Assembly: GCA_036517255.1 (NCBI GenBank)
Contig: DATDXE010000014.1
Span: forward strand, 75,994 to 114,608
Origin: Minisyncoccota bacterium
Lineage (GTDB): Bacteria > Patescibacteriota > Minisyncoccia > Phycocordibacterales > WO2-35-19
Reading direction: 5' to 3'
DNA: 38,615 bases
A program made the position numbers and the translations under genes. The notes beneath the pieces were generated by a model. The model was given only the letters and a program-made list of their open reading frames with translations, was not told the origin of the DNA and made no database searches. Below, in pieces: positions 4,231 to 38,615 of this stretch; position 1 is the first letter of the stretch, and each line of letters opens with the position of its first letter.

Positions 4231-6162
4231 ATGGAAGATTTCAAACACAACGAGCCCTTGGATAGGCTCAAAAGAGGTATATACTCGAGGAAAACTCCTG
4301 ATATTATCGATACTCCACGTTCTCAATTCAAAAAGGAGGAATTTGAAACTCCTCAAAGTTGGGATAGTAAAGGCAACAGCAAGTTCGACGCTCTAGCTTC
4401 TCGCTTTGCCCATGTAGCGGAAAAGCGTCACACTTTTGCCAAGAAATTTCTCACTATTACTGCCTCTCTTTTCGTCATCGCTGTCGCTGTTGCCGTCTAT
4501 GTTTTCTCCGGCGGGGTGAACACCATCTCCTCTAAAAATGTCGATATCGAAGTGGTCGGCCCGGTTTCCGTGGGCGGCGGTCAAAATGTCAGCTTCGATA
4601 TCAAAGCTATCAATAAAAATAATACCGACCTCGAAGCAGTAAAACTGACAGTCGAATACCCTACTGGTGCGAGAAGTATCGACGATCTTTCCAAAGAGCT
4701 CACTAGTCAGAGTTTCAACTTAGGCACAGTAGAATCTGGCGATGAGGGAGTGCAATCAGTCAGCCTTTTTCTTTTTGGTGAAAAGGAGGAAGTCAAAAAG
4801 TTCAACATCGTGGTCGAGTATCGAGTGAAAAACTCCAGTGCTCTTTTTTATAAAGAGAAGTCACATGAGATTTCTATCAGCTCTGCTCCTGTCATAGTCA
4901 CTTCCACTTATCCCAAGGAAATAAATTCAAATCAAAATATTAATTTCTCTGTCGAAGTGGCTTCCAATTCAAACGAAAACATCGAGGATTTTCTTTTGAA
5001 TGTCGAATATCCTTTCGGTTTCACTTTCACTAATGCTTCTCCTAGCCCATCATTCAATAACAATACTTGGAAAATGAGTTTTAAAAGTGGGGAGAAAAGG
5101 GTCATTCGTATTTCTGGCGTTTTGGCTGGCGTCGACAATGAGGAAAGAGTATTCAAAGTCAGTTCTGGTACCGCGAGTCCCGATGACGAAAGGAAAATAG
5201 GTGTCCTCTTTACCTCCACCAACGAATCGATTGTTGTAGAGAAACCTTTTGTCGGCATTGATCTCACGGTCGGCTCTTCTTCAGGTGAGCCGGTAGTTAC
5301 GGGTGTCAGTACAGTGAATGGGGAACTTTCAATAATAAATAATTTGTCCAGCAGACTTTTCAACGTGGGTGTAGAAGCCGCTCTTTCCGGAGGAGCTTTT
5401 TCAGAGAGCTCGGTCTACGCTGGGAATGGCGGCTTTTTCCGTTCAGTCGATGACACTATTTTGTGGGATGCGAGGTCGCTTTCAGAACTAGGTAGCCTCG
5501 CTCCGGGCGAAGATGTCGATTTGAATTTTCGTTTCAATCCTATCGCGTACCAAAGCATTCCTGCTGGTACCTTGTCTCAAATAAAAGTAAAAATAAAAGT
5601 AGTGGGGGAGCGAGTGCTCGATTCCGGCGAGCCCGAGAAAATAGAATTGACCTTGGAAAAAATAGTGCGTCTTGGTACAGAACTTTCTCTCGTTCCCAAA
5701 GTAGTGCGAGTGGAAGGCAATATTGAAAATACTGGCCCCATCCCTCCGAGAGTGGATCAGAAAACTACTTACGCCATCGTTTGGTCACTTGCCAATACTT
5801 TCAATGCCGCCACCGGTGTGGAAGTCATTGCCACTCTGCCTTCATATGTGGAGTGGACAGGGGCCAAAAGTCCGGGGACAGAGGATATAGTGTTTGATCC
5901 TATCTCTCACCAAGTCATATGGAGGGTGCCGCAGATTGTGGCTGGGGCAGGGTACAAAGGTCCTGCAAAACAAGTCGCTTTTCAAGTCGCTCTTTTACCG
6001 AGCGTCAGTCAGGTAGGTACCAATCCTGAAATAATCGGCCCAGTGACAGTGCGAGCTAAAGATAAAATTACGACTATCGATATTTTCTCAAACGCCTCGG
6101 CTCTCACCACTCGCTTCACTGACTCGAGCTTTAAAGAGGGTTATGATAAGGTAGTTCAGTAA
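4231..6162 (+). CDS. Membrane-anchored extracytoplasmic hypothetical protein
   Basis: There is a single TM segment (FLTITASLFVIAVAVAVYVF) after a polar N-terminus. A long beta-rich region follows. No catalytic motif was recognised. Confidence 0.5.
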   Translation: MEDFKHNEPLDRLKRGIYSRKTPDIIDTPRSQFKKEEFETPQSWDSKGNSKFDALASRFAHVAEKRHTFAKKFLTITASLFVIAVAVAVYVFSGGVNTISSKNVDIEVVGPVSVGGGQNVSFDIKAINKNNTDLEAVKLTVEYPTGARSIDDLSKELTSQSFNLGTVESGDEGVQSVSLFLFGEKEEVKKFNIVVEYRVKNSSALFYKEKSHEISISSAPVIVTSTYPKEINSNQNINFSVEVASNSNENIEDFLLNVEYPFGFTFTNASPSPSFNNNTWKMSFKSGEKRVIRISGVLAGVDNEERVFKVSSGTASPDDERKIGVLFTSTNESIVVEKPFVGIDLTVGSSSGEPVVTGVSTVNGELSIINNLSSRLFNVGVEAALSGGAFSESSVYAGNGGFFRSVDDTILWDARSLSELGSLAPGEDVDLNFRFNPIAYQSIPAGTLSQIKVKIKVVGERVLDSGEPEKIELTLEKIVRLGTELSLVPKVVRVEGNIENTGPIPPRVDQKTTYAIVWSLANTFNAATGVEVIATLPSYVEWTGAKSPGTEDIVFDPISHQVIWRVPQIVAGAGYKGPAKQVAFQVALLPSVSQVGTNPEIIGPVTVRAKDKITTIDIFSNASALTTRFTDSSFKEGYDKVVQ

Positions 6163-6203: not shown

Positions 6204-7538
6204 ATGAAAGAAGAGGATAAATTAAGTAAGATAGTGGCGCTTTGTAAGAGGAGGGGGTTTATTTTTCCTGGCTCCGAAATCTACGGTGGCCTTTCCGGTA
6301 CTTGGGATTATGGTCCGTATGGAGCTGAAATGGCAAACAACATAAAAAATCTCTGGTGGAAAATGTTCGTGACGGATAGAGAGGATATGTATGGGGTTGA
6401 TGCCGCTATCATCATGAATCCTAAAGCATGGGAAGCCTCTGGTCATGTTTCTGGCTTTTCTGATCCGCTTGTCGAATGCGAAAAATGCCACCATCGTTTT
6501 CGAGCCGATCATTTAGAAGACAAAAATACCTGTCCTGATTGTGGCGGAAAATTAGGAGGTGAGAAGCAGTTTAATATGATGTTTAAAACTTTTGTAGGGG
6601 CTACGGAAGACGAAAATTCTGTTTCCTATTTGAGGCCGGAAACTGCTGGTGGCATGTTTGTAAATTTCAAAAACGTGGTGGACAGTATGCATCCCAAAAT
6701 TCCGTTTGGCTTAGCTCAAATTGGTAAAGCATTTAGAAACGAAATAGCTCCGCGAGATTTTATTTTTCGTTCTCGTGAATTTAGGCAGATGGAAGTGGAG
6801 TATTTTGTTCGCCCTGAAGAATGGGAGAAATCTTTTGAAGAGTGGAGAATGGTGATACATTCTTGGATGGAGGCAATTGGTTTAGATAAATCTCACATTC
6901 ACGAATTGGAAGTGAAAGATGAAGATCGGGCACACTATTCAAAAAGAACTATCGATTTTGAATTCGACTATCCATTCGGCAGGAAAGAGTTGTACGGGTT
7001 GGCTTATAGGACCGACTTTGATTTGAAAGCCCATGCCGCCGCTTCCGGTATTGATCTGTCATATTTTGACGAAGATCCGCCAGCCGGCGGAAAAGAGCGT
7101 TTTGTGCCACATGTTATTGAGCCGTCTCTTGGAGTAGACAGGACTATTCTTGCTGTCCTTTCCGATGCTTATACTGAAGATGATCCGCCAGCCGGCGGAG
7201 AAGGAGTAAGAGAATATTTGAAACTGAAACCTGCTATCGCTCCGGTGAAAGTCGCTGTGTTCCCACTTTTGAAAAATAAGCCGGAGCTTGTAGCCAAAGC
7301 CAGAGAAATTTATAAAAGTTTGAAAAAAGAATTTGGGGCAGTGGAGTTCGACGACAATGGCAACATCGGTAAGCGTTATCGCCGCCAAGATGAAATCGGC
7401 ACACCATTTTGCATTACTGTCGATTTCGATACTCTTGAGAAAAATGGAGGCGTCACTGTTCGCGATCGCGACACTGGAAAACAAGAAAGGGTTGCCGAAT
7501 CAGAACTCGTACAATTTTTGAAAGGCAAGTTATCTTAA
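6204..7538 (+). CDS. glyQS: Glycyl-tRNA synthetase (dimeric class II, GlyQS type)
   Basis: RGFIFPGSEIYGGLSGTWDYGPYG, RPETAGGMFVNF, FRSREFRQMEVEYFV (motif 2), VIEPSLGVDR (motif 3) and a C-terminal anticodon-binding domain are present. Confidence 0.95.
   Translation: MKEEDKLSKIVALCKRRGFIFPGSEIYGGLSGTWDYGPYGAEMANNIKNLWWKMFVTDREDMYGVDAAIIMNPKAWEASGHVSGFSDPLVECEKCHHRFRADHLEDKNTCPDCGGKLGGEKQFNMMFKTFVGATEDENSVSYLRPETAGGMFVNFKNVVDSMHPKIPFGLAQIGKAFRNEIAPRDFIFRSREFRQMEVEYFVRPEEWEKSFEEWRMVIHSWMEAIGLDKSHIHELEVKDEDRAHYSKRTIDFEFDYPFGRKELYGLAYRTDFDLKAHAAASGIDLSYFDEDPPAGGKERFVPHVIEPSLGVDRTILAVLSDAYTEDDPPAGGEGVREYLKLKPAIAPVKVAVFPLLKNKPELVAKAREIYKSLKKEFGAVEFDDNGNIGKRYRRQDEIGTPFCITVDFDTLEKNGGVTVRDRDTGKQERVAESELVQFLKGKLS
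7075..7091 (+). repeat. Family B mini-palindrome, copy B1, in-frame in glyQS (encodes DPPAGG)
   Basis: The sequence is atccgccagccggcgga. The same 17-mer recurs at 7183-7199 and 16109-16125, and with one substitution at 35605-35621. Confidence 0.8.
7183..7199 (+). repeat. Family B mini-palindrome, copy B2, in-frame in glyQS (encodes DPPAGG)
   Basis: It is identical to B1 and lies 108 nt downstream in the same reading frame. Confidence 0.8.
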
Positions 7539-10054: not shown

Positions 10055-10729
10055 ATGAAGAAAAGTAAAATCCTACTTCCGTATCCCACGGGAGTAACAC
10101 TCATTGTCGTACCAGTTTTCTATCTATTCAGTGACAGGGAGCTTCGGCACCCTTCCACTGTTTGGCTGAATCTTTACCAACTCTACTCCCTCTGTTCTAT
10201 GAAGGGGGATGAAGACGCTTCCATGCTGAAGGAGTTCATTGACCCGGCCGACATTTCTCAGGTCCTTACTTATCTTCCCGTGTTAGCCCAAACGGAAGAA
10301 AAGTACCTGCAGTACGAACAGTACATCCGGTCTCAGGGCTTCGTCCATTCTCGCAGAATTCAACATGAATTTGCGTTGCACACGTGGTGCGCTGGTTTGC
10401 CAGATCATGAGGCAGAAAAAGCACCTGTGGTGCTGAGCGATAACGATAAACCTAGCAACATTTTCGCAAAGAACGTCTGCAAGATTTTTTCCATGACGTT
10501 GCAGGAGTTCTTTGAAGCCCCATCTACCTCTCCTGGTAAGCAAGCCCTCGTCCTTGCCATGCGACGTAAGGGTATTGATTTCAAACAGATCTGCGCCATC
10601 TGTCTCATCTCTAGACAGCAGGCCCAGATAGCTGCCATGCAAGCTGACATCGAGCAAAGCAAGAATCCAAAGTTCAAAGAGAAGCTCGAGCGACTGGAAC
10701 AGCTCTTGGGGGAACACCCCACAACTTGA
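10055..10729 (+). CDS. Hypothetical protein with a C-terminal sigma-region-4/LuxR-like HTH, paralogous to the sigma C-terminal extension
   Basis: An AAGGAGCGG RBS is present. By eye, C-terminal residues 147-212 (MTLQEFFEAPSTSPGKQALVLAMRRKGIDFKQICAICLISRQQAQIAAMQADIEQSKNPKFKEKLE) are ~60% identical to sigma residues 393-458. Confidence 0.6.
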   Translation: MKKSKILLPYPTGVTLIVVPVFYLFSDRELRHPSTVWLNLYQLYSLCSMKGDEDASMLKEFIDPADISQVLTYLPVLAQTEEKYLQYEQYIRSQGFVHSRRIQHEFALHTWCAGLPDHEAEKAPVVLSDNDKPSNIFAKNVCKIFSMTLQEFFEAPSTSPGKQALVLAMRRKGIDFKQICAICLISRQQAQIAAMQADIEQSKNPKFKEKLERLEQLLGEHPTT

Positions 10730-10784
10730 GGGCTTACTGATGCACCCTGTGTGTCGGTAGGTCCTTTTTGGTTTTGGGTTTTAA

Positions 10785-10818
10785 CCCTCTCCTTTGCAAG
10801 GAGAGGGTTGGGTGAGGT
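10785..10818 (+). repeat. Family A palindromic element, copy A1 (intergenic)
   Basis: The sequence is ccctctcctttgcaaggagagggttgggtgaggt. It has 10-bp arms, a 3-nt loop and a G-rich tail. Near-identical copies lie at 13894-13931 and 16047-16081. Confidence 0.85.
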
Positions 10819-10830
10819 AGAGTATTGTTT

Positions 10831-12105
10831 ATGAATTATCAAAAGAAAGTTTTAGAAAATGGTATGAGGATCGTCGTGGTACCAGTGCCGGGTGCGCCTT
10901 CGCTCACTGTCGCCGCTATGGTTGAGGCTGGTTCAAAGTATGAAAGTAGGAAGGAGAATGGCATCTCCCATTTCCTAGAGCATATGTTTTTCAAAGGCAC
11001 TAAAAATAGGCCGACTACTCTTGCTATCACCAAGGAATTCGATGGCTTAGGAGCGGAAAACAATGCCTCTACTAGTCAAGAATCGACCTACTACTATGCC
11101 AAGTCGCACCCAAAACATTTTGATCAAATGCTCGATGTTATTTCCGACATCTATCAAAACTCCTCTCTACCAGGAGCTGAAATCGAAAAAGAAAAAGGGG
11201 TAGTGATCGAGGAAATGAATATGTATAAAGATTTACCTCAGGAAATTGTCGGCGAAATTTTTCAAGAACTCTTGTACGGTGATACTCCAGCTGGTCGAGA
11301 AATATTGGGTACTGAAGAAAACGTAAAATCTTTCACCCGTGAAAATATTTCAGATTATATGCAAAAACATTATGTCGCTTCTGCTACTACTGTGGTAGTC
11401 GCAGGCGATATTTCTCCAGCAACTGCTTTTGAAAAAGTGACAAAGGCTTTTGAGAATATAAAAATAGGCGAAAAGATAGAAAAAGAAAAGGTAATCGAAA
11501 AACAAGCAGAGCCAAGAGTGAAACTAAAATTCAAAGAGACGGATCAGTCACATATTATTATTGGTGTAAGGGCTTTCGATATGTACAATCCTCGTTCCCG
11601 AACTTTAAATCTGCTCGGGGTCGTTCTCGGCCAAGGTATGAGCTCTAGGCTTTTTCAAAAAATGCGGGAAGAACTTGGCATTTGCTACTACATCGGAGCG
11701 GGTGCTCGTAAACTGACCGATCATGGATTTTTTGCTATCTCTGCTGGAGTAGATAAAAAGCGTATCGAAGAAGCGGTGAAGGAAATCCTGAAGGAAATGA
11801 AAAAGATTAGGGATGAGGAGGTGGGAGAGGAGGAATTGCGCAAGGCCAAGGATTATATGCTGGGCCATTTGTATCTTGGCCTCGAGTCCTCCGATTCTTT
11901 AGCAGAGTTTTATGGTTTTCAAGAGTTATTTAAAAAAGAGATAAAAACTCCGAAGGATATCGAGGAGGAAGTGGAAAAAATAACGGCGCAAGATTTGCAA
12001 AAAGTAGCTAGGGATATCATGAGGAACGAGGGCCTCAACATGGCGGTAGTCGGTAATTATGGAGAAAAGGATTTAGAAAATTTTATTAAAATACTGACAT
12101 TGTGA
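10831..12105 (+). CDS. M16 family (pitrilysin/insulinase-like) zinc peptidase
   Basis: HFLEHMFFKGT carries the HxxEH zinc motif, and the length is typical for a two-domain M16 protein. ATG 10831 is preferred over the TTG at 10825 given in the ORF track. Confidence 0.85.
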   Translation: MNYQKKVLENGMRIVVVPVPGAPSLTVAAMVEAGSKYESRKENGISHFLEHMFFKGTKNRPTTLAITKEFDGLGAENNASTSQESTYYYAKSHPKHFDQMLDVISDIYQNSSLPGAEIEKEKGVVIEEMNMYKDLPQEIVGEIFQELLYGDTPAGREILGTEENVKSFTRENISDYMQKHYVASATTVVVAGDISPATAFEKVTKAFENIKIGEKIEKEKVIEKQAEPRVKLKFKETDQSHIIIGVRAFDMYNPRSRTLNLLGVVLGQGMSSRLFQKMREELGICYYIGAGARKLTDHGFFAISAGVDKKRIEEAVKEILKEMKKIRDEEVGEEELRKAKDYMLGHLYLGLESSDSLAEFYGFQELFKKEIKTPKDIEEEVEKITAQDLQKVARDIMRNEGLNMAVVGNYGEKDLENFIKILTL

Positions 12106-12117
12106 TATAATCTATTC

Positions 12118-13170
12118 ATGGCTGTTTCTTCTCCCAAAATGACGAACATTGCTACGAGCACCATGTTTAGGGCTGTGCTGGTACTTCTTTTCTTTGGAGC
12201 TCTCTTCTACTTACGTGACATTGTGCTTGTGGTTATTCTCTCTATCGTGGTCGCTTCGGCTATCGAGCCGGGTACTCGCTTCTTGTCACGGCGTAATGTG
12301 CCGAGGCTTCTCTCTGTCATCTTGATGTATCTCCTCCTTATCGCTTTGCTTGCTGGCGTTTTTTACTTCCTTTTCTTACCGATTCTAAGCGAAACCTTAG
12401 GTTTTCTCTCTAGTTTACCTGGCTACTTGGGCGATCTTAAAGTGTGGAATCCACTTGAATCTTCTGGTTTTCTTGCTGACAGTCCTCTCCAAGAAATTAC
12501 TAAAAGTTTTTCTCTGGTTGATATCGTCAGTCAGCTCGATACCGTTATCAATAAATTTTCTGGTGGCTTCTTCTCTACCGCCAGCGCTATTTTTGGTGGC
12601 ATCTTTTCTTTCGTTCTGGTCATTGTTCTTTCCTTTTATTTATCGGTTGAGGAAGATGGTGTCGCTAGTTTTCTCAAAATTGTCATTCCTAAAAAGCAGG
12701 AGGCCTATATCATCGATTTGTGGCGCCGCTCTCAGCATAAAATAGGTTTATGGATGCAAGGTCAGCTGGTGCTAGCAGTCATTGTCGCTGTATTAGTTTT
12801 CCTTGGCCTCACCTTGCTTCGAGTGGAAAACGCCTTGCTTCTTGCTGTCGTGGCGGGATTGTTTGAAATAATTCCTGTATTTGGTCCTATTCTTGCTGCC
12901 ATTCCTGCTGTCGCTATATCGATAGTGAGCGGTGGCATCGCTCCAGCTCTCCTTGTCATTGGTCTTTATGTCATCATCCAACAGTTTGAAAACCAACTTA
13001 TTTATCCTCTGGTGGTCAAAAAAGTCATAGGCGTGCCGCCTATTGTTTCCATCCTGGCCATTATTATAGGTGGCAAGCTGGCCGGTTTTATGGGTGTTAT
13101 TATTTCAGTTCCTATCGCCGCCGCTCTTATGGAATTCCTTTCTGATGTCGAAAAAAGTAAAAGTGCCTAA
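12118..13170 (+). CDS. AI-2E family transporter (PerM/UPF0118) permease
   Basis: The protein is polytopic with roughly 8 TM segments. The layout is typical, with LFEIIPVFGPILAAIPAV and a C-terminal GVPP...IIGGKLAGFMGV block. Confidence 0.75.
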   Translation: MAVSSPKMTNIATSTMFRAVLVLLFFGALFYLRDIVLVVILSIVVASAIEPGTRFLSRRNVPRLLSVILMYLLLIALLAGVFYFLFLPILSETLGFLSSLPGYLGDLKVWNPLESSGFLADSPLQEITKSFSLVDIVSQLDTVINKFSGGFFSTASAIFGGIFSFVLVIVLSFYLSVEEDGVASFLKIVIPKKQEAYIIDLWRRSQHKIGLWMQGQLVLAVIVAVLVFLGLTLLRVENALLLAVVAGLFEIIPVFGPILAAIPAVAISIVSGGIAPALLVIGLYVIIQQFENQLIYPLVVKKVIGVPPIVSILAIIIGGKLAGFMGVIISVPIAAALMEFLSDVEKSKSA

Positions 13171-14626
13171 ACCATTTTACATCACTACTACTCTGCCTTA
13201 TGTAAATGCTGATCCGCATGTTGGTTTTGCCGCTGAAATTATTCGAGCTGATGCCGTTGCTAGATACAGGAAGCTTGTAGGACAGGAAATATTTTTTAAC
13301 ACAGGTACCGATGAACATGGTCAGAAAGTTTGGACTGAAGCTGGGAAACAAAACAAAAATCCTCAAGAATATGTCGACGAATATGCTCAAAAATTTATCG
13401 ACTTGCTTCGAGTTCTCGATATTTCCGAAGAAGTACACTTTACTCGTACCACGAGTGAAGCTCACAAAAAAGCTGCTCAATATTTTTGGAAAGTATGTGC
13501 TGATAAAGGTGATATTTATAAAAAAGAATATAAAATAAAATACTGTGTTGGTTGTGAGCTTGAGAAGCAAGATTCTGATTTGGATGAAGGGGATAAGTGT
13601 TTAGTCCACCCACACTTGGAACTAGAAATCCGTGAAGAGGAAAATTATTTCTTTAAATTTTCAAACTATCAGAAGCCTCTTTTAGAGTTATATGAAAAGA
13701 ATCCGAACTTAGTCATTCCCGATTTTCGTTTTAATGAAATAAAAAAGTTTGTCGAAATGGGTCTGCATGATTTTTCTATCTCTCGTCTCAAGTCAAAAAT
13801 GCCATGGGGAGTGGAAGTTCCAGGTGACTCTGATCATGTTATGTATGTTTGGTTCGACGCCCTCGTAAATTACATTTCTTGTTTGGGGTGGCCCCCCTCT
13901 CCTTTACAAGGAGAGGGGTCGGGGGTGAGGTCATTCCAAAAATTTTGGCAGGAAGGAGAAACAGTTCAATACTGTGGTAAAGATAATTTACGCCAACAGT
14001 CCGCCATGTGGCAGGCCATGCTTTTGAGTGTTGGCCTCAAAAACACCGATCACATTGTCATCAATGGTTTTATAAATTCTGGTGGCCAAAAAATGAGTAA
14101 ATCTCTCGGCAATGTCATTTCTCCATTTGATCTGGTTTCTGAATACAGCACTGATGCTCTTCGTTATTATTCTCTTCGTGAACTCTCAAATTTTGAGGAT
14201 TCCGATATGACCATCGAAAAGTTTAAAGAAGCTTATAATGCTAATTTAGCCAATGGTTTGGGTAACTTGGCTTCTAGGGTTCTTACTCTTTCTCAAAAAT
14301 ATTTGGATAAATGTCCGGAAATTCCGGAGGAGTCCGATTTTGTCGAATACTTCAAATTCTACGAGAATTTTGATTTAAATGGAGCCACTAATTATGTTTG
14401 GAATGAAATAGGTAAACTAGATAAATTTATTCAAGAAACTGAGCCATTTAAAGTAGTGAAAGTGGATGAGGTGAAGGGCAGGGAACTTATCTCTAAAATG
14501 GTGCAGGATCTTTATACTATTGCTAGGATGCTAAATCCTATAATGCCAGCGACCAATGTTTTGCTCAAAAAATTAATCAAAGAAAACAAAGCTCCCGAAA
14601 CTCCGCTCTTTCCTAGGAAAAACTAG
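13145..14626 (+). CDS. metG: Methionyl-tRNA synthetase
   Basis: PYVNADPHVGF (HIGH region), KMSKSLGN (KMSKS), ISRLKSKMPWGVEVP and WFDALVNY are present. The ATG at 13145 (MSKKVKVPKPFYITT) is preferred, and it overlaps the permease stop by 26 nt. Confidence 0.93.
   Translation: MSKKVKVPKPFYITTTLPYVNADPHVGFAAEIIRADAVARYRKLVGQEIFFNTGTDEHGQKVWTEAGKQNKNPQEYVDEYAQKFIDLLRVLDISEEVHFTRTTSEAHKKAAQYFWKVCADKGDIYKKEYKIKYCVGCELEKQDSDLDEGDKCLVHPHLELEIREEENYFFKFSNYQKPLLELYEKNPNLVIPDFRFNEIKKFVEMGLHDFSISRLKSKMPWGVEVPGDSDHVMYVWFDALVNYISCLGWPPSPLQGEGSGVRSFQKFWQEGETVQYCGKDNLRQQSAMWQAMLLSVGLKNTDHIVINGFINSGGQKMSKSLGNVISPFDLVSEYSTDALRYYSLRELSNFEDSDMTIEKFKEAYNANLANGLGNLASRVLTLSQKYLDKCPEIPEESDFVEYFKFYENFDLNGATNYVWNEIGKLDKFIQETEPFKVVKVDEVKGRELISKMVQDLYTIARMLNPIMPATNVLLKKLIKENKAPETPLFPRKN
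13894..13931 (+). repeat. Family A palindromic element, copy A2, in-frame inside metG (encodes PSPLQGEGSGVRS)
   Basis: The sequence is cccctctcctttacaaggagaggggtcgggggtgaggt, with 11-bp arms and a 3-nt loop. Confidence 0.85.
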
Positions 14627-14659
14627 GTAACTCCTAATATTAGGGTCTTTTTAGAATAC

Positions 14660-14688
14660 TTGCTTTTCTATGGTATATATGCTACAAT
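14660..14688 (+). promoter_or_regulatory. Putative sigma-70 promoter
   Basis: TTGCTT (14660-14665), a 17-nt spacer, then TACAAT (14683-14688). An AGGAGG RBS and the ATG at 14706 follow. Confidence 0.45.
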
Positions 14689-14705
14689 GTATACTAGGAG
14701 GCTGT

Positions 14706-15056
14706 ATGAGACTAGTGGTGTTTGCTCTGATTTTGATGGCAGGAGCCGGAGGCTTCTACCTTTACCAAAATCGCGAGGAGGTGTATGGTCAGTCGTCCGA
14801 CCTGCCTCGCGGTTGTGTCGGGGAGATAGAAAACCCCGATAAGACATTGCTTTGTGACGAGGCCCACAAGGTCTCGATGCGGGTAACGGACGGTGCGTGC
14901 CACAAGGTGCGACTGCACGTCGCAAAGCACGCTGAAATCTACACTCGTGTCCCCGGCGCTGTGGAGATGGTGCGCGTTGTCAAAGGTGATGGCACTCAGG
15001 TTTGTGCGCGAGGGCCTCATCCGATCATAGAAGTTTGGGCCAAAGCGATTCCATAG
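14706..15056 (+). CDS. Small Cys-containing secreted or membrane-anchored hypothetical protein
   Basis: The AGGAGG RBS lies 4 nt upstream of the ATG. The N-terminal hydrophobic segment is MRLVVFALILMAGAGGFYLY. There are 5 Cys residues, and the sequence looks G+C-richer than its neighbours. Confidence 0.5.
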   Translation: MRLVVFALILMAGAGGFYLYQNREEVYGQSSDLPRGCVGEIENPDKTLLCDEAHKVSMRVTDGACHKVRLHVAKHAEIYTRVPGAVEMVRVVKGDGTQVCARGPHPIIEVWAKAIP

Positions 15057-15081
15057 CGCTAGCGCCATCCAGTAACTGCTT

Positions 15082-15111
15082 CCCCCTGAGCTCTTGGTTG
15101 AGCTTGGGGGG
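15082..15111 (+). terminator. Rho-independent terminator
   Basis: A 12-bp stem pairs ccccctgagctc with gagcttgggggg, including 2 wobble pairs. The loop is ttggtt. T-rich sequence follows. Confidence 0.65.
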
Positions 15112-15138
15112 ACTTTCTTTTTATCTGATATTTAAGGA

Positions 15139-15167
15139 TTGATTTTAAATATAGAAAGTGGCATATT
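15139..15167 (+). promoter_or_regulatory. Putative sigma-70 promoter
   Basis: TTGATT (15139-15144), a 17-nt spacer ending in TGG, then CATATT (15162-15167). Confidence 0.35.
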
Positions 15168-15215
15168 GTTCCCAGGTGCTCTTTTGCACTAGTCTAGTTT
15201 TGGAGGTCCTCCCCC

Positions 15216-15755
15216 GTGGTTACAATTGAAGGTATTTCTGTGGCAACTTCTTTAGCGGTTCCTCAGCCGCTCCTAGTGTTCGAGTCCAGCTTTTACATTC
15301 CAGCCCTCGATTCGAGTCTGTCCTCACATCGCTTTGGCAGGATCGAGGGTTTCCGTCGGGACCCAGATTTTCATCGCGTGGTTCCTACAAGAGAGGGCCC
15401 CACTTTTCGCAGGGAATGCCTGGCCTACACTCTAAACAAGGGTGGCTGTATCTCTCTGGATTTGGTCCTTGCCGCTTACGGTTCTCCCGAAGTGACCGCG
15501 GAAGAACTTTCCGCTCTAGCCATCGAGAAAGGCAGCCACCTTTCATTCAGGCAGATGGAGTGGATTCACGCTAACAGGCGGTCGCTCCTCATGGAGCGCG
15601 ACAATCTTTTCCTTGGTCGAAGCAAGGACGGAAGCATTATGATTTTCGGTCTACGCCAAGAAAGGGATAAGTGGCTTGTTGGGCCTTCCCCCCTTCGAGC
15701 CGGTGAAGTGTGGAATGCAGGCACATCCTTTTTCATGCTCGAGTCCTGGACGTAG
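15216..15755 (+). CDS. Hypothetical protein (orphan)
   Basis: A GTG start lies 9 nt after GGAGG (15202-15206). The ORF is 179 aa with no recognised motif. The sequence looks G+C-richer. Confidence 0.45.
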   Translation: MVTIEGISVATSLAVPQPLLVFESSFYIPALDSSLSSHRFGRIEGFRRDPDFHRVVPTREGPTFRRECLAYTLNKGGCISLDLVLAAYGSPEVTAEELSALAIEKGSHLSFRQMEWIHANRRSLLMERDNLFLGRSKDGSIMIFGLRQERDKWLVGPSPLRAGEVWNAGTSFFMLESWT

Positions 15756-15839
15756 TTCCTAGCGGCCAGTCCCGCCATCTTTTACAGGGTGGCGGGGCGG
15801 TTCTTTTACATTTTTTGTAGTTACCTATACTCTATTGTT

Positions 15840-16649
15840 ATGAATTTAAATTACATCGACATACACTGCCATCTTGATTCTCCTGATTACGGAGAGGAAT
15901 TACCCAAAGTTTTAGAAAGAATGAGAGAAAAAAATATTGGGGCGATCACCATTGGCACTGATCTGGAAAGCTCTCGCCGAGCGGTTCATATTGCGGAAGA
16001 AAACGAAAATATCTGGGCTTGCATCGGGGTGCATCCGATTCCGACTCCCTCTCCTTCGCAAGGAGAGGGTTGGGGTGAGGTCCAGCTTGAATTCGAAAAA
16101 TTAATCCAATCCGCCAGCCGGCGGACCAAAGTCGTCGCTATCGGTGAATGTGGCCTCGATTTTTTCAGAGTCGCCCCAGAGAATTTGGAAAAAGAAAAAG
16201 AAAGACAAACAGCACTTTTCAGAAAACAAATCGAGTTTGCTTTAAAGTACGACAAGCCACTGATGCTTCATTGTAGGCAGGCGTACGATGAGGTGCTTGA
16301 AATCCTGGAGGAGTATAGGGGAGCAAAGCTTAGGGGAGATTGTCATTTTTTTGCAGGGAATGTAGATCAAGCCAAAAGATTTGTTGAGTTGGGTTTCTCT
16401 TGCTCTTTCACTGGGGTCATTACATTTACTCATGATTACGATGAAGTTATAAAATCTTTGCCCCAAGATATGATTATGTCTGAAACCGATGCCCCTTTTG
16501 TCGCTCCAGTTCCTTATAGAGGCAAGAGGAATGAGCCAAGCTATGTCGCAGAAGTAGTAAAAAAGATGGCTGAAATAAGGGGAGAAGAGCTAGAAAATTT
16601 GGCAAAAGTGCTTGTGCACAATGCAGAAAGGCTTTTTGGTTTAAAATGA
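15840..16649 (+). CDS. tatD: TatD family metal-dependent deoxyribonuclease/hydrolase
   Basis: IDIHCHLD, VVAIGECGLDF, PLMLHCRQA, HFFAG and SETDAPF are present. ATG 15840 (MNLNYIDIHCH) is preferred over the upstream ORF-track start. Confidence 0.9.
   Translation: MNLNYIDIHCHLDSPDYGEELPKVLERMREKNIGAITIGTDLESSRRAVHIAEENENIWACIGVHPIPTPSPSQGEGWGEVQLEFEKLIQSASRRTKVVAIGECGLDFFRVAPENLEKEKERQTALFRKQIEFALKYDKPLMLHCRQAYDEVLEILEEYRGAKLRGDCHFFAGNVDQAKRFVELGFSCSFTGVITFTHDYDEVIKSLPQDMIMSETDAPFVAPVPYRGKRNEPSYVAEVVKKMAEIRGEELENLAKVLVHNAERLFGLK
16047..16081 (+). repeat. Family A palindromic element, copy A3, in-frame inside tatD (encodes PSPSQGEGWGEV)
   Basis: The sequence is ccctctccttcgcaaggagagggttggggtgaggt. 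Confidence 0.85.
16109..16125 (+). repeat. Family B mini-palindrome, copy B3, inside tatD (read as SASRR, a different frame from the glyQS copies)
   Basis: The sequence atccgccagccggcgga is identical to B1 and B2. Confidence 0.8.
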
Positions 16650-35604: not shown

Positions 35605-35621
35605 ATCCGCCAGCTGGCGGA
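35605..35621 (+). repeat. Family B mini-palindrome, copy B4, in the 23S leader
   Basis: atccgccagctggcgga has a perfectly palindromic core and differs by one C-to-T change from B1-B3. Half-arms resembling family A flank it (tttctcct ... gagagggagaggggtc). Confidence 0.7.
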
Positions 35622-35695: not shown

Positions 35696-36073
35696 TAAGA
35701 AAATGTAAGAAAATGTAGGTTGCCGTATGGTTTCATACGGCAGGATAAAATAAAAAATCCCGCCTAGCTCGCAAGAGCGAAGTGGGAGAGGTTTTTAAAT
35801 TTCCTAATAGGAAATTTAAGGGCGTATGGTGGATGCCTTGGCTCCAATAAGGCGATGAAGGACGTAGCTTGTCTGCGATAAGCTTCGGGGAGGTGACTAG
35901 CAACCTGTGATCCGAAGATTTCCGAATGGGGAAACCCATCCTGACGTAAGTCAGGATATTTTACACTTGATGTAAAATGCGCACCCGGGGAAGTAAAACA
36001 TTTCATTACCCGGAGGAAAATAAAACAAAAGTTATTCCGTGAGTAGCGGCGAGCGAAAGCGGAGAAGCTCAAA

Positions 36074-36178
36074 CCCCCACTTCACTGTGTGCTTCGCACG
36101 ACAGTTTCGCGGGGCAAGCTCTTAAATTTAAGGGCCTGCCCCGCGGAACTCGAAGCGGAGCGTAGAGTGAAGTGGGGG
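36074..36178 (+). other. ~105-nt hairpin insertion/expansion in 23S domain I
   Basis: A 13-bp closing helix pairs cccccacttcact (36074-36086) with agtgaagtggggg (36166-36178). An inner helix pairs cgcggggcag with ctgccccgcg. The E. coli sequence as I recall it has no counterpart at this point (after GCGAGCGAA...). Confidence 0.7.
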
Positions 36179-36385
36179 GGTTGTAAGGCAGAGACGTTGT
36201 GTTTACACAAGAGAAGTTAAAAAATTATTTGTTAGAAGAATTTGCTGGAAAGCAAAGCCCCAGAGGGTAATAGCCCCGTAGTCGAAAATAAATAATCTTC
36301 TTTGTCTCTGTTCTTGAGTACCTCGAGACACGAGTAGCTCGGGGGAATCTGCCGGAACTAACCGGTAAGGCTAAATACTTATGGA

Positions 36386-36425
<40 letters not shown>

Positions 36426-37679
36426 TAGCCCGATGAGGGCGGTGAAATAGACCTGAAACCATATGCCTACAAGGAGTCGGAGCGGACGCGCAAGCGTTCC
36501 GTCACGGCGTGCCTATTGAAGAATCAGCCAACGAGTTAATGTATGCGGTTGCCTAAGGAGTGAACCTCTGGAGGCACAGTGAAAGCGAGCGTGAATAGCG
36601 CGAACTAAAATCGTATATATTAGACCCGAAGCCAGGTGAGCTTGCCATGAGCAGGGTGAAATGACTCGAAAGAGTCATGGAGGCCCGAACCCGTTCGTCG
36701 TTCAACGCGTTGGGATGACTTGTGGTAAGGAGTGAAAAGCTAATCGAACCTGGTAATAGCTGGTTCTCTCCGAAAGAGCTTTTGGGTTTGCGTCATATGT
36801 TCCCTTTGGGGGTAGAGCACTGGAAGGTCTGGACAGGGCGAAAGCTCGCTAGACCTATCAAACTCCGAATACCAAAGGTTAAAGTATGGCAGTTAGACGG
36901 TGGGGGCTAAGCTCCACTCGTCAAAAGGGAAACAGCCCGGATCTCAATTTAAGGTCCCTAAATCATAGCTAAGTGCACTCAAGGTGGTGGAATTTCAGAG
37001 ACAATGAGGAGGTTGGCTTAGAAGCAGCCACCCTTAAAAGAAAGCGTAACAGCTCACTCATTCAGAGATTCTGCGCCGAAGATAATCGGGGCTAAGCTAT
37101 GTACCGAAACTGAGGGCTTCTTTGTTCTTAGGAACGAAGGAGCGGTAGGAGAGTATTCCGCTCTGTTGTGAAGGCAAAGGGGTGACCCATGCTGGAACGT
37201 GCGGAAGTAAGAATGTTGGCACAAGTAACCGCAATGCAGGTGAAAGCCCTGCACGCCGAAAGACTAAGGTTTCCTTCGCGATGTCAATCAGCGAAGGGTT
37301 AGTCGGGCCTAAACCGATGGCGAAAGCCGAAGGTGATGGACAGTGGGTTAATATTCCCACACCTATATATGTAGTGATGGAGTGACGAAGTGCAGTATGC
37401 GAGGCGCATTATTGGATTTGACGTTCATGTTGTCAGAATACGATTCAGGAAAATCCGAGTCGTTCCGTTTAATCGGGCATTCAAGCAATGTGGCAATCCG
37501 GAGCTTCGGCAAAGGAGAGTTCGCAAAGCGCGCTTTCAAGAAAAACTTCTAAACTTATACATATATAGACCGTACCGTAAACCGAAACAGGTAGTCAGGT
37601 CGAGAAGACCAAGGCGAACGAGTGAGAGGTCCCCAAGGAACTCGGCAAAAAAGCGACCGTAACTTCGGGATAAGGTCTG

Positions 37680-37785
37680 CCCCCACCACTTTGGATGTTT
37701 CTAAAGTGGAGGGAGAGCAAGAAGAATCGAGACAAAATTAAAGCTCTCTATCACTAAAAGCACGAAGTGTCTAAAGTGGTGGGGG
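37680..37785 (+). other. ~106-nt hairpin at the variable helix (H63-like) of 23S domain IV, expanded relative to E. coli
   Basis: A 13-bp closing helix pairs cccccaccacttt (37680-37692) with aaagtggtggggg (37773-37785). The internal repeat ctaaagtgg occurs twice. Confidence 0.65.
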
Positions 37786-38615
37786 CCGCAGCTAAAGTAT
37801 CTCTGGCGACTGTTTACCAAAAACACAGCTCCCTGCGAACACGTAAGTGGATGTATAGGGGGTGACACCTGACCAATGCCAGAAGGTCAAACATCGACGT
37901 CTTTTTGTCGCAAGATGAAGAGGTGATTGATGTAAGCCCTGGTGAATGTCGGCGATAACTATAATCGTCCTAAGGTAGCGAAATTCCTTGTGTGGTAAGT
38001 TCACACGCGCACGAATGGTGTAACGACTGGAGAACTGTCTCGGGGACCCGCTCGGTGAAAATACAATACCGGTGAAGATGCCGGTTTCCTGCAGTTAGAC
38101 GAAAAGACCCCAGAAGCTTTACTGCAACTTGGCATTGAGGGTATGTTTTTACTGCGTAGCATAGGTGGCAGAGGTTATGTGCATGGTTTCGGCTGTGTAA
38201 TACTCGTCAGTGAAATACCACTCTGTATTGACATACTTTCTAACCTCCGCGGAAAAAACGCGAAGAGACAGTGCCTGGTGGGCAGTTTTAGTGGGGCGCT
38301 ATCCTCCTAAAAAGTAACGGAGGAGTCTATTAAGGTCAGCTAGCCGTGAATGGAAACCATGGCGATAGTGTATAGGCACAAGCTGGCTTAACTGCGAGGC
38401 GTGAGTGCCGAGCAGATGCGAAAGCAGAGCTAAGTGATCCGATCGTACGCGTTAGACGCGGCGAAAGCTCATCTGACAAAAGCTACTCTGGGGATAACAG
38501 GCTGGTACCGCCTAAGCGTCCATAGCGACGGCGGTGTTCGGCACCTCGATGTCGGCTCACCTTATCCCGGGGGTGGAGAAGCTCCCAAGGGTTTGGCTGT
38601 TCGCCAATTAAAAAG

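Follow-up and report, generated by a model that had tools for sequence, protein, structure and literature searches.

A probable BoxC/PIT/TMECO-type repeat in frame within the methionyl-tRNA synthetase gene of a Candidate Phyla Radiation bacterium

The stretch of DNA analyzed here (hereafter "the window") comprises 38,615 nt of contig DATDXE010000014.1 (positions 75,994 to 114,608; assembly GCA_036517255.1) from a Minisyncoccota bacterium of the Candidate Phyla Radiation (CPR), and it carries three copies of a short palindromic repeat: one inside metG, one inside tatD and one in an intergenic spacer. The metG gene (13145-14626, plus strand) encodes a methionyl-tRNA synthetase (MetRS) of 493 aa, whose matches in PDB (E=8.5e-90) leave a gap opposite the insert. 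The metG copy is 38 nt long (13894-13931, plus strand) and consists of a C-rich arm CCCCTCTCCTT (13894-13904), a loop TAC (13905-13907), a first G-rich arm AAGGAGAGGGG (13908-13918), a second loop TC (13919-13920) and a second G-rich arm GGGGGTGAGGT (13921-13931). Sequence and translation agree with an earlier interpretation made from the letters alone (the sequence-only reading), which described an in-frame element with perfect arms of 11 bp, a loop of 3 nt and a G-rich tail. In the metG frame the 38 nt read PSPLQGEGSGVRS, flanked by WFDALVNYISCLGWP and FQKFW...YCGKDNLR, and thus supply MetRS residues 251-263 (13 aa); the predicted tryptic peptide at the insert ends in ...ISCLGWPPSPLQGEGSGVR. 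As RNA, the predicted hairpin of this copy has a folding energy of ~ -21 to -32 kcal/mol, with ViennaRNA folding the hairpin part alone.

The second coding copy (16047-16081, plus strand; read PSPSQGEGWGEV) is hosted by tatD (15840-16649, plus strand), which encodes a TatD-family hydrolase of 269 aa (PDB matches, E=2e-41). Its parts are a C arm (16047-16056), a loop CGC (16057-16059), a first G arm (16060-16069), a second loop TT (16070-16071) and a second G arm GGGGTGAGGT (16072-16081). The ATG-start form of the TatD protein (P0121) is found as an identical protein on 13-18 contigs, and an exact look-up of the GTG-start form gave no record. The spacer copy (10785-10818, plus strand) is made up of a C arm (10785-10794), a loop TGC, a first G arm (10798-10807), a second loop TT and a second G arm (10810-10818); it lies between a terminator-like hairpin (10728-10766, followed by a T run) and the start of an M16 peptidase gene (ATG at 10831). 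In two relatives (L244 and L245) the same spacer contains ordinary terminator hairpins and no element. Both of these further copies had been proposed before, and both were recovered with an exact core: the core CCCTCTCCTTNNNAAGGAGAGGG (CCCTCTCCTT-N3-AAGGAGAGGG) occurred three times in the window, all on the plus strand and with 0 mismatches, against a mean expectation of 0.01 under dinucleotide-preserving shuffles, none of which (0/100) reached three matches. No Rfam family covered the element, whether the whole window was searched at the gathering threshold or positions 10700-16200 with E values up to 1, and the two weak matches elsewhere were attributed to chance.

The two coding copies had been said to use the same frame and to differ in length by exactly 3 nt. 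The former is true of the hairpin, which is read in the same frame in metG and tatD, but not of the tail, which is read G-V-R-S in metG and W-G-E-V in tatD, the spacing from the stem to TGAGGT differing by 2 nt; as to the latter, the 3-nt gap comes from one extra C:G pair at the foot of the metG stem. This difference in tail frame between the two genes is evidence for a unit of DNA and not of peptide.

We compared MetRS with its 120 closest orthologs, all CPR/Paceibacteria-like. Most of them have 4-5 residues at the site (GWP-x4-5-FEKFW, e.g., GWP-ENTEQ-FEKFW), and the solved MetRS structures are without the segment (13 residues fewer in Aquifex and nine fewer in Thermus). The closest relative recovered (L244; syntenic, MetRS 81% identical in alignment A1) has no MetRS insert. 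Likewise, the Thermotoga maritima TatD structure has nine aa fewer at the position of the tatD insert. The metG element stands in a short variable linker segment instead of the usual 4-5 codons, with the frame kept, and the frame is kept in tatD too. These comparisons bear out the earlier proposal that the insert is lineage-specific, and MetRS orthologs from unrelated phyla with the same peptide were not encountered. In an AlphaFold2 model of MetRS (39 sequences; mean predicted local distance difference test (pLDDT) score 89.4), a coil (residues 246-258) is placed between two helices (235-245 and 259-269); most of the insert falls in this coil, and the lowest internal confidence is that of residues 251-260 (mean pLDDT 53). 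The model is consistent with the tolerance as a surface loop that had been suggested earlier: to judge from coil and low pLDDT, the insert is probably flexible and exposed. The metG copy is presumably transcribed and translated as 13 residues, given the kept frame and the essentiality of MetRS. In another relative (L245), a bAvd-like gene and a reverse transcriptase (RVT_1) lie directly upstream of metG and overlap its start (4386-5763), a combination characteristic of diversity-generating retroelements.

An assembly or scaffolding artefact in this GC-rich hairpin region would also produce an apparent insert. One scaffold from the same population (L001) speaks for such an error: at its positions 982-995, 14 unrelated-looking bases replace window positions 13871-13932, which amounts to a 48-nt in-frame deletion of GWP plus the element, together with six substitutions in the 15 nt upstream, the remainder being 100% identical. 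On the other hand, a 75-nt metG segment was identical in five assemblies (from ENA, Logan and JGI data), the 493-aa MetRS was called in all five (L246-L250), and the insert keeps the frame. Moreover, four of the five, which are further assemblies of the same genome (L246-L249), match the window byte for byte in the metG, tatD and spacer segments; in the fifth (L250), the metG and tatD segments were identical and the spacer segment was not found. In the ortholog alignment, G248 is nearly invariant and W249 and P250 are invariant; because L001 deletes this nearly invariant GWP motif, it is the L001 version that is aberrant, and an artefact in the window is extremely improbable. L001 was also rejected as an empty site, on the grounds of the lost GWP, the clustered substitutions and the disagreement of five assemblies. 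It may be an assembly error, or it may be a real unstable allele, like the local instability that Holder et al. tie to motifs of the kind identified below (PMC4666352). JGI metagenome contigs gave 0 matches to an empty-site allele and 0 to the filled-allele control, so the locus is not in that collection.

The same loops are occupied in relatives, not always in the same way. In L002 (GCA_964392285.1; syntenic, MetRS 73% identical), the element occupies this MetRS loop too, but it is inverted and read TSPPTPLLAKERG, which implies an independent event; the TatD ortholog of L002 is without an insert. In contrast, the TatD orthologs of L254 and L255 have the insert, with arms identical to those of the window: across the three sites the element differs at one or two of 35 positions, all in the 3-nt loop, while the host genes share only 66-72% nucleotide identity. 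The left junction of these TatD sites is variable and the right junction fixed. Across Paceibacteria, the TatD loop after GVHP contains at least four kinds of element-derived peptide, and many orthologs have none. The constancy of the TatD arms probably reflects a process acting on nucleotides and not on the protein, which would be selection on the folded arms, recognition of the three-arm fold by some factor, or re-seeding from other copies.

These data bear directly on whether the segment is ordinary protein, i.e., a Pro/Gly-rich linker, ancestral or convergent, in which the palindromic DNA is incidental. The MetRS loop is naturally variable, some other orthologs have longer linkers ending in EENL, and PSPLQGEGWGEV is common to TatD orthologs of several species, all of which a protein-level origin would accommodate. 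It would not accommodate the following: i) a non-coding spacer contains the same 34-38 nt; ii) the reversed copy in the L002 MetRS gives a different peptide; iii) the repeat is read in three or more frames in unrelated proteins and occurs in many phyla, and its tail frame differs between metG and tatD; iv) the arms are nucleotide-identical in host genes that are ~70% identical. For practical purposes this explanation is therefore excluded by the copy in the spacer, by the inverted one in L002 and by the differences in frame.

In further orthologs, peptides resembling other translated palindromic repeats were also seen in the same two loops, which follow GWP in MetRS and GVHP in TatD (PPLNLRGGERSEGV, PSLVIREG, EKPQGENLKKTQGLSLG and SAQDLRPFDSAQDLRP, in P0007, P0019, P0022, P0041 and P0115 and in P0132, P0140, P0148, P0139 and others). 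Beside the element, the TatD of L244 contains another insert that resembles a hairpin (SSPLSRGRN, TCCCCCTTGAGCAGGGGGA); L244 is the one case for which the DNA was checked.

Through the words GGGTGAGGG and GGGAGAGGG, the element could be linked in the literature to a repeat of Escherichia coli. Holder et al. (2015; PMC4666352) equate the BoxC repeat of E. coli with the PIT element and with the "TMECO" intrastrand triplex motif; the TMECO consensus is CCCTCNCCC N3-6 GGGNGAGGG N3 GGGNGAGGG, and 3610 copies were counted in 262 proteobacterial genomes, including 23 in E. coli K-12 MG1655, all 23 of them intergenic and none tied to mobility genes. The earlier work on BoxC/PIT/TMECO by Bergler, Bachellier, Hoyne and Maher is represented here through its citation in that paper, whose summary of the experiments of Maher's group reports no promoter, terminator or polymerase effects of the E. 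coli element in vivo. Kaplan et al. (2016; PMC5100583) described the same E. coli element as HPGQ, a G-quadruplex-hairpin-duplex switch, with no copy within an open reading frame (ORF). In our scan, 4305 of 5426 complete E. coli genomes contained the enterobacterial version.

The window copies share with BoxC/TMECO: i) the order of a C-rich arm, a complementary G-rich arm and a mirror G-rich arm; ii) the words CCTCTCC, GGAGAGG and GGGTGAGG, which are common to HPGQ as well; iii) a length of ~35 nt and a dispersed, multicopy occurrence in both orientations, with conserved arms and variable loops; iv) the lack of an associated mobility gene (here, among the window ORFs scanned). They depart from it in several respects: T:A replaces C:G at the inner stem ends, and a T closes the third arm, in keeping with a T:A*T triad; loop 2 is 1-2 nt long instead of 3; the host is a CPR bacterium instead of a proteobacterium; and two of the three window copies lie inside genes, whereas the E. 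coli K-12 copies are all intergenic. What had been described as a palindrome with a G-rich tail is indeed present, but it is not specific to this genome, and the tail is a second G-rich arm that mirrors the first, i.e., the third arm of a known cross-phylum repeat. HPGQ is the E. coli element viewed from its G-rich side, with four G-tracts after a complementary C-rich flank; in the window copies the G-tracts are only 2 at both ends, and the HPGQs all lie between ORFs. A canonical three-tetrad G-quadruplex was rejected for the window copies, for which only a two-tetrad pattern is possible. By its sequence, the window element is a low-GC variant of the cross-phylum BoxC/PIT/TMECO/HPGQ repeat, and very probably the 38 nt in metG represent one copy of this dispersed, non-coding-type repeat, in frame in a linker segment and tolerated there as a loop.

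Rickettsia palindromic elements (RPEs), which Ogata et al. reportedly described in 2000, had been offered as the precedent. RPEs are 100-150 bp long, are not known outside Rickettsia and have no mirror third arm. The analogy is good for the outcome, both being selfish palindromic DNA that keeps the frame of conserved genes in a reduced genome and, here presumably, contributes surface peptide segments, but it does not extend to the family: the present element is 34-38 nt long and cross-phylum, and membership was rejected on length. Filamentous cyanobacteria are said (Elhai et al., 2008) to harbor small dispersed repeats of 21-27 nt, hairpins that spread in genomes and can enter genes. As very short spreading hairpins these are similar to our element, of which the exact low-GC variant has many matches in Nostoc, Rivularia and Calothrix.

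The repeat is widely distributed. A flexible pattern (CCTCTCC, gap, GGAGAGG, gap, GGGTGAGG) matched at least 120 stretches in viral contigs with 33-73% GC, and the exact low-GC variant (28 specified bases) matched at least 120 stretches in GTDB genomes. Among the GTDB matches listed, the hosts were Cyanobacteria (Nostoc, Rivularia, Calothrix and Scytonema), Melioribacter and other Ignavibacteria, Bacteroidota, Chthonomonadaceae (Armatimonadota), Chloroflexi, a Bdellovibrionales metagenome-assembled genome (MAG) and, within CPR, Nomura-, Moran-, Uhr-, Falkow- and Kerfeldbacteria, Saccharibacteria, Gracilibacteria and Paceibacterota. Among the same matches listed, copies avoid ORFs overall (23% are spanned by an ORF of at least 150 aa, versus 72% of random positions), yet nine of 18 CPR copies lie in such ORFs versus ten of 88 others (11%; p=5.5e-4). 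The CPR coding hosts were Dus, FemAB, UvrD, MgsA, UvrC, IF-2, UvrA, GluRS, a radical SAM protein and PheRS-beta. Coding copies occur in both orientations and several frames, with three or more frames used in unrelated proteins; sense readings include PSPxxGEGxGEV and PLLxKERxGVR, and antisense readings include TSPPTPLLxKERG, TSPQPSPYKGEG and xPHPxPLLxKERG. A fixed stop codon (TGA) exists in only one of the six element frames. As had been proposed from the window alone, a nucleotide-level repeat has entered coding sequence: it occupies coding and non-coding DNA, in both orientations, in several frames and in many phyla.

Two matches in Cyanobacteria (L145 and L151, from Rivularia and a cyanobacterial MAG) lie in ORFs of ~1800 aa with adjacent element-derived segments (KPHPNPLLEK-KPHPSPLLGKERE), so a coding location is not exclusive to CPR. 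In a Moraniibacteriota MAG (L165, 833-4228), the UvrD helicase has the element near residue 92 and, at residues 277-643, an intein as well (Intein_splicing and Hint domains).

We next considered the third arm. Under the ITxF rules for triplexes (a pyrimidine arm, a complementary purine arm and a mirror purine arm; stem length 6-15, loop length 1-6 nt, no more than one mismatch), each window copy as well as the L002 copy had 9-10 valid triads (C:G*G, T:A*A, T:A*T), with 10 of 11 valid in the metG copy. Covariation was examined in 150 distinct copies, at positions left free by the search pattern. When the eighth stem pair was C:G, the third arm had G in 96 of 100 copies; when it was T:A, the third arm had T in 17 of 18 copies and never G (Fisher p=9e-18, and p=7e-5 in contigs below 50% GC). 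Furthermore, the length of the C/G foot of the stem and that of the G run in the third arm covary. A concerted three-way switch (T:A*A versus C:G*G) was found at the TatD site, where L244 and L245 have CCCTCCCC / GGGGAGGG / GGGTGGGG and the window has CCCTCTCC / GGAGAGGG / GGGTGAGG. As read from aligned copies, the third-arm covariation matches the triad rules of a purine-motif triplex. With its three arms, a single strand could fold as a hairpin and, in DNA, as a potential intrastrand purine-motif triplex.

A structured element of this kind might have been co-opted where it now sits, either as an mRNA hairpin that paces translation or stabilizes the transcript, or as a DNA structure that affects replication or recombination. 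The strong hairpin is suggestive of this, as are the conservation of the arms far beyond that of the host gene at orthologous TatD sites, the association of such motifs with local genome rearrangement (PMC4666352) and the coincidence of the L001 48-nt deletion and clustered substitutions with the exact place of the metG element. However, no site-specific evidence was found, the closest relative without the MetRS insert (L244) retains the same gene order, and the in vivo experiments on the E. coli element summarized above likewise count against it. Local co-option is quite improbable.

For the repeat as a tolerated insertion, the tolerance would come from three properties combined: a permissive loop, five of six frames without a fixed stop, and a Pro/Ser/Gly/Glu-rich peptide in those frames. 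In gene-dense CPR genomes, permissive loops of housekeeping genes would be among the few places where copies survive; the recurrent loop hits and the coding enrichment in CPR may thus both result from the scarcity of neutral landing sites. Tentatively, new copies may be made by a trans-acting, structure-specific process on single-strand DNA, with a logic like that of repetitive extragenic palindromic (REP) sequences and REP-associated tyrosine transposases (RAYT). A further possibility, put forward with similar caution, is that a triplex-capable element present in Proteobacteria, Cyanobacteria, Bacteroidota, Ignavibacteria and CPR is being actively propagated, or maintained for its three-strand fold, and that in CPR it recurrently enters one and the same set of permissive loops in essential enzymes.

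A more specific proposal is that the repeat is a non-autonomous element of the REP/REPIN type or a miniature inverted-repeat transposable element (MITE), moved by a RAYT or an IS200/IS605-type Y1 enzyme encoded elsewhere and targeting the loop sequence. REP/REPIN sequences with RAYT (e.g., PMC3116915) are likewise 20-40 nt hairpin repeats with conserved arms, a high copy number and no target duplication; the short hairpin, free loops, both orientations and many copies of our element are in line with this, and the flanks showed no target duplication at any of four insertion sites, as for IS200/IS605-type insertions. In addition, the same MetRS and TatD loops were hit repeatedly, and GGGGTG stands directly upstream of both coding copies. 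On the other hand, the flanks of all copies lack a GTAG/GTGG head, the window has no paired REPIN arrangement, and REP sequences are extragenic by definition, unlike the coding copies here; with regard to MITEs, terminal inverted repeats are absent, as is the target-site duplication. A Pfam scan of ten otherwise unassigned window ORFs gave no family in four, and the remaining six had no match to a transposase or Y1/HUH family; nor was a transposase or RAYT (Y1 HUH) present in the gene tables of related and neighboring contigs. The E. coli element is without a link to mobile-element genes (PMC4666352), and selection that spares copies solely at permissive sites would account for the hot spots as well. 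Such an element, mobilized by an enzyme encoded elsewhere, is on balance rather unlikely.

Several points weigh against a BoxC-kind repeat that was inserted, translated and spread in trans, and they concern different parts of it: i) the strict TMECO consensus was matched by none of the window copies in a regular-expression search that the enterobacterial copy passed, with arm ends and loop-2 length as the sole differences; ii) translation of the metG copy is presumed from frame preservation and MetRS essentiality; iii) removal of the element leaves GWP-FQKFW, shorter than in any ortholog, and it follows that the element replaced the native linker, a deletion or replacement having accompanied its arrival; iv) no precise empty-site allele was found that would fix the exact element boundaries and any target duplication; v) the identical arms at orthologous TatD sites could come from repeated independent insertion and not from constraint; vi) in vivo, the triplex is still hypothetical even for the E. 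coli element (PMC4666352); vii) neither Holder et al. nor the scan of window ORFs found an association with a transposase, which weakens mobilization in trans.

The kind of element is already known from E. coli, and an RPE-like outcome is generally known from Rickettsia. In the searchable literature we found no report of a BoxC-kind repeat in CPR or of an in-frame BoxC insertion; nor did we find one of frequent residence in housekeeping genes, of inverted re-use of one MetRS loop, of comparative three-way covariation, or of TatD copies with identical arms in host genes only ~70% identical. Neither the function of the BoxC/triplex-motif repeat nor the way it spreads has come to light in the thirty years since it became known in E. 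coli, where it was described as strictly intergenic; the presence of a near base-for-base equivalent inside CPR aminoacyl-tRNA synthetases, repair enzymes and IF-2 means that it is not confined to spacers. Insertions could be dated, and selection on a non-B DNA structure tested, with the natural material that the orthologous filled, empty and inverted sites provide. For annotators and structure modelers, many odd Pro/Gly-rich loops of CPR proteins may be repeat-derived and not functional protein features. If active propagation or maintenance were true, part of the CPR proteome would have been written by selfish structured DNA, and the three-way covariation would count as comparative-genomic evidence for a role of the intrastrand triplex in vivo.

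The window contains a second, unrelated palindrome of 16 nt (TCCGCCAGCCGGCGGA) in four copies (7076-7091, 7184-7199, 16110-16125 and 35606-35621; 0 expected). Two copies are in frame in GlyRS, read DPPAGG, and add four and three residues relative to four orthologs; a third, in TatD (16110-16125), is read SASRRT and adds four residues; and one lies upstream of the 23S rRNA gene. A tRNA scan of the window found none, and neither a 16S nor a tRNA gene was present upstream of the 23S within the window. The 23S rRNA match (35806-38615) covers model positions 1-2595 in 2810 nt, and the ~215 nt in excess may represent an insertion like those reported in the rRNA of CPR.

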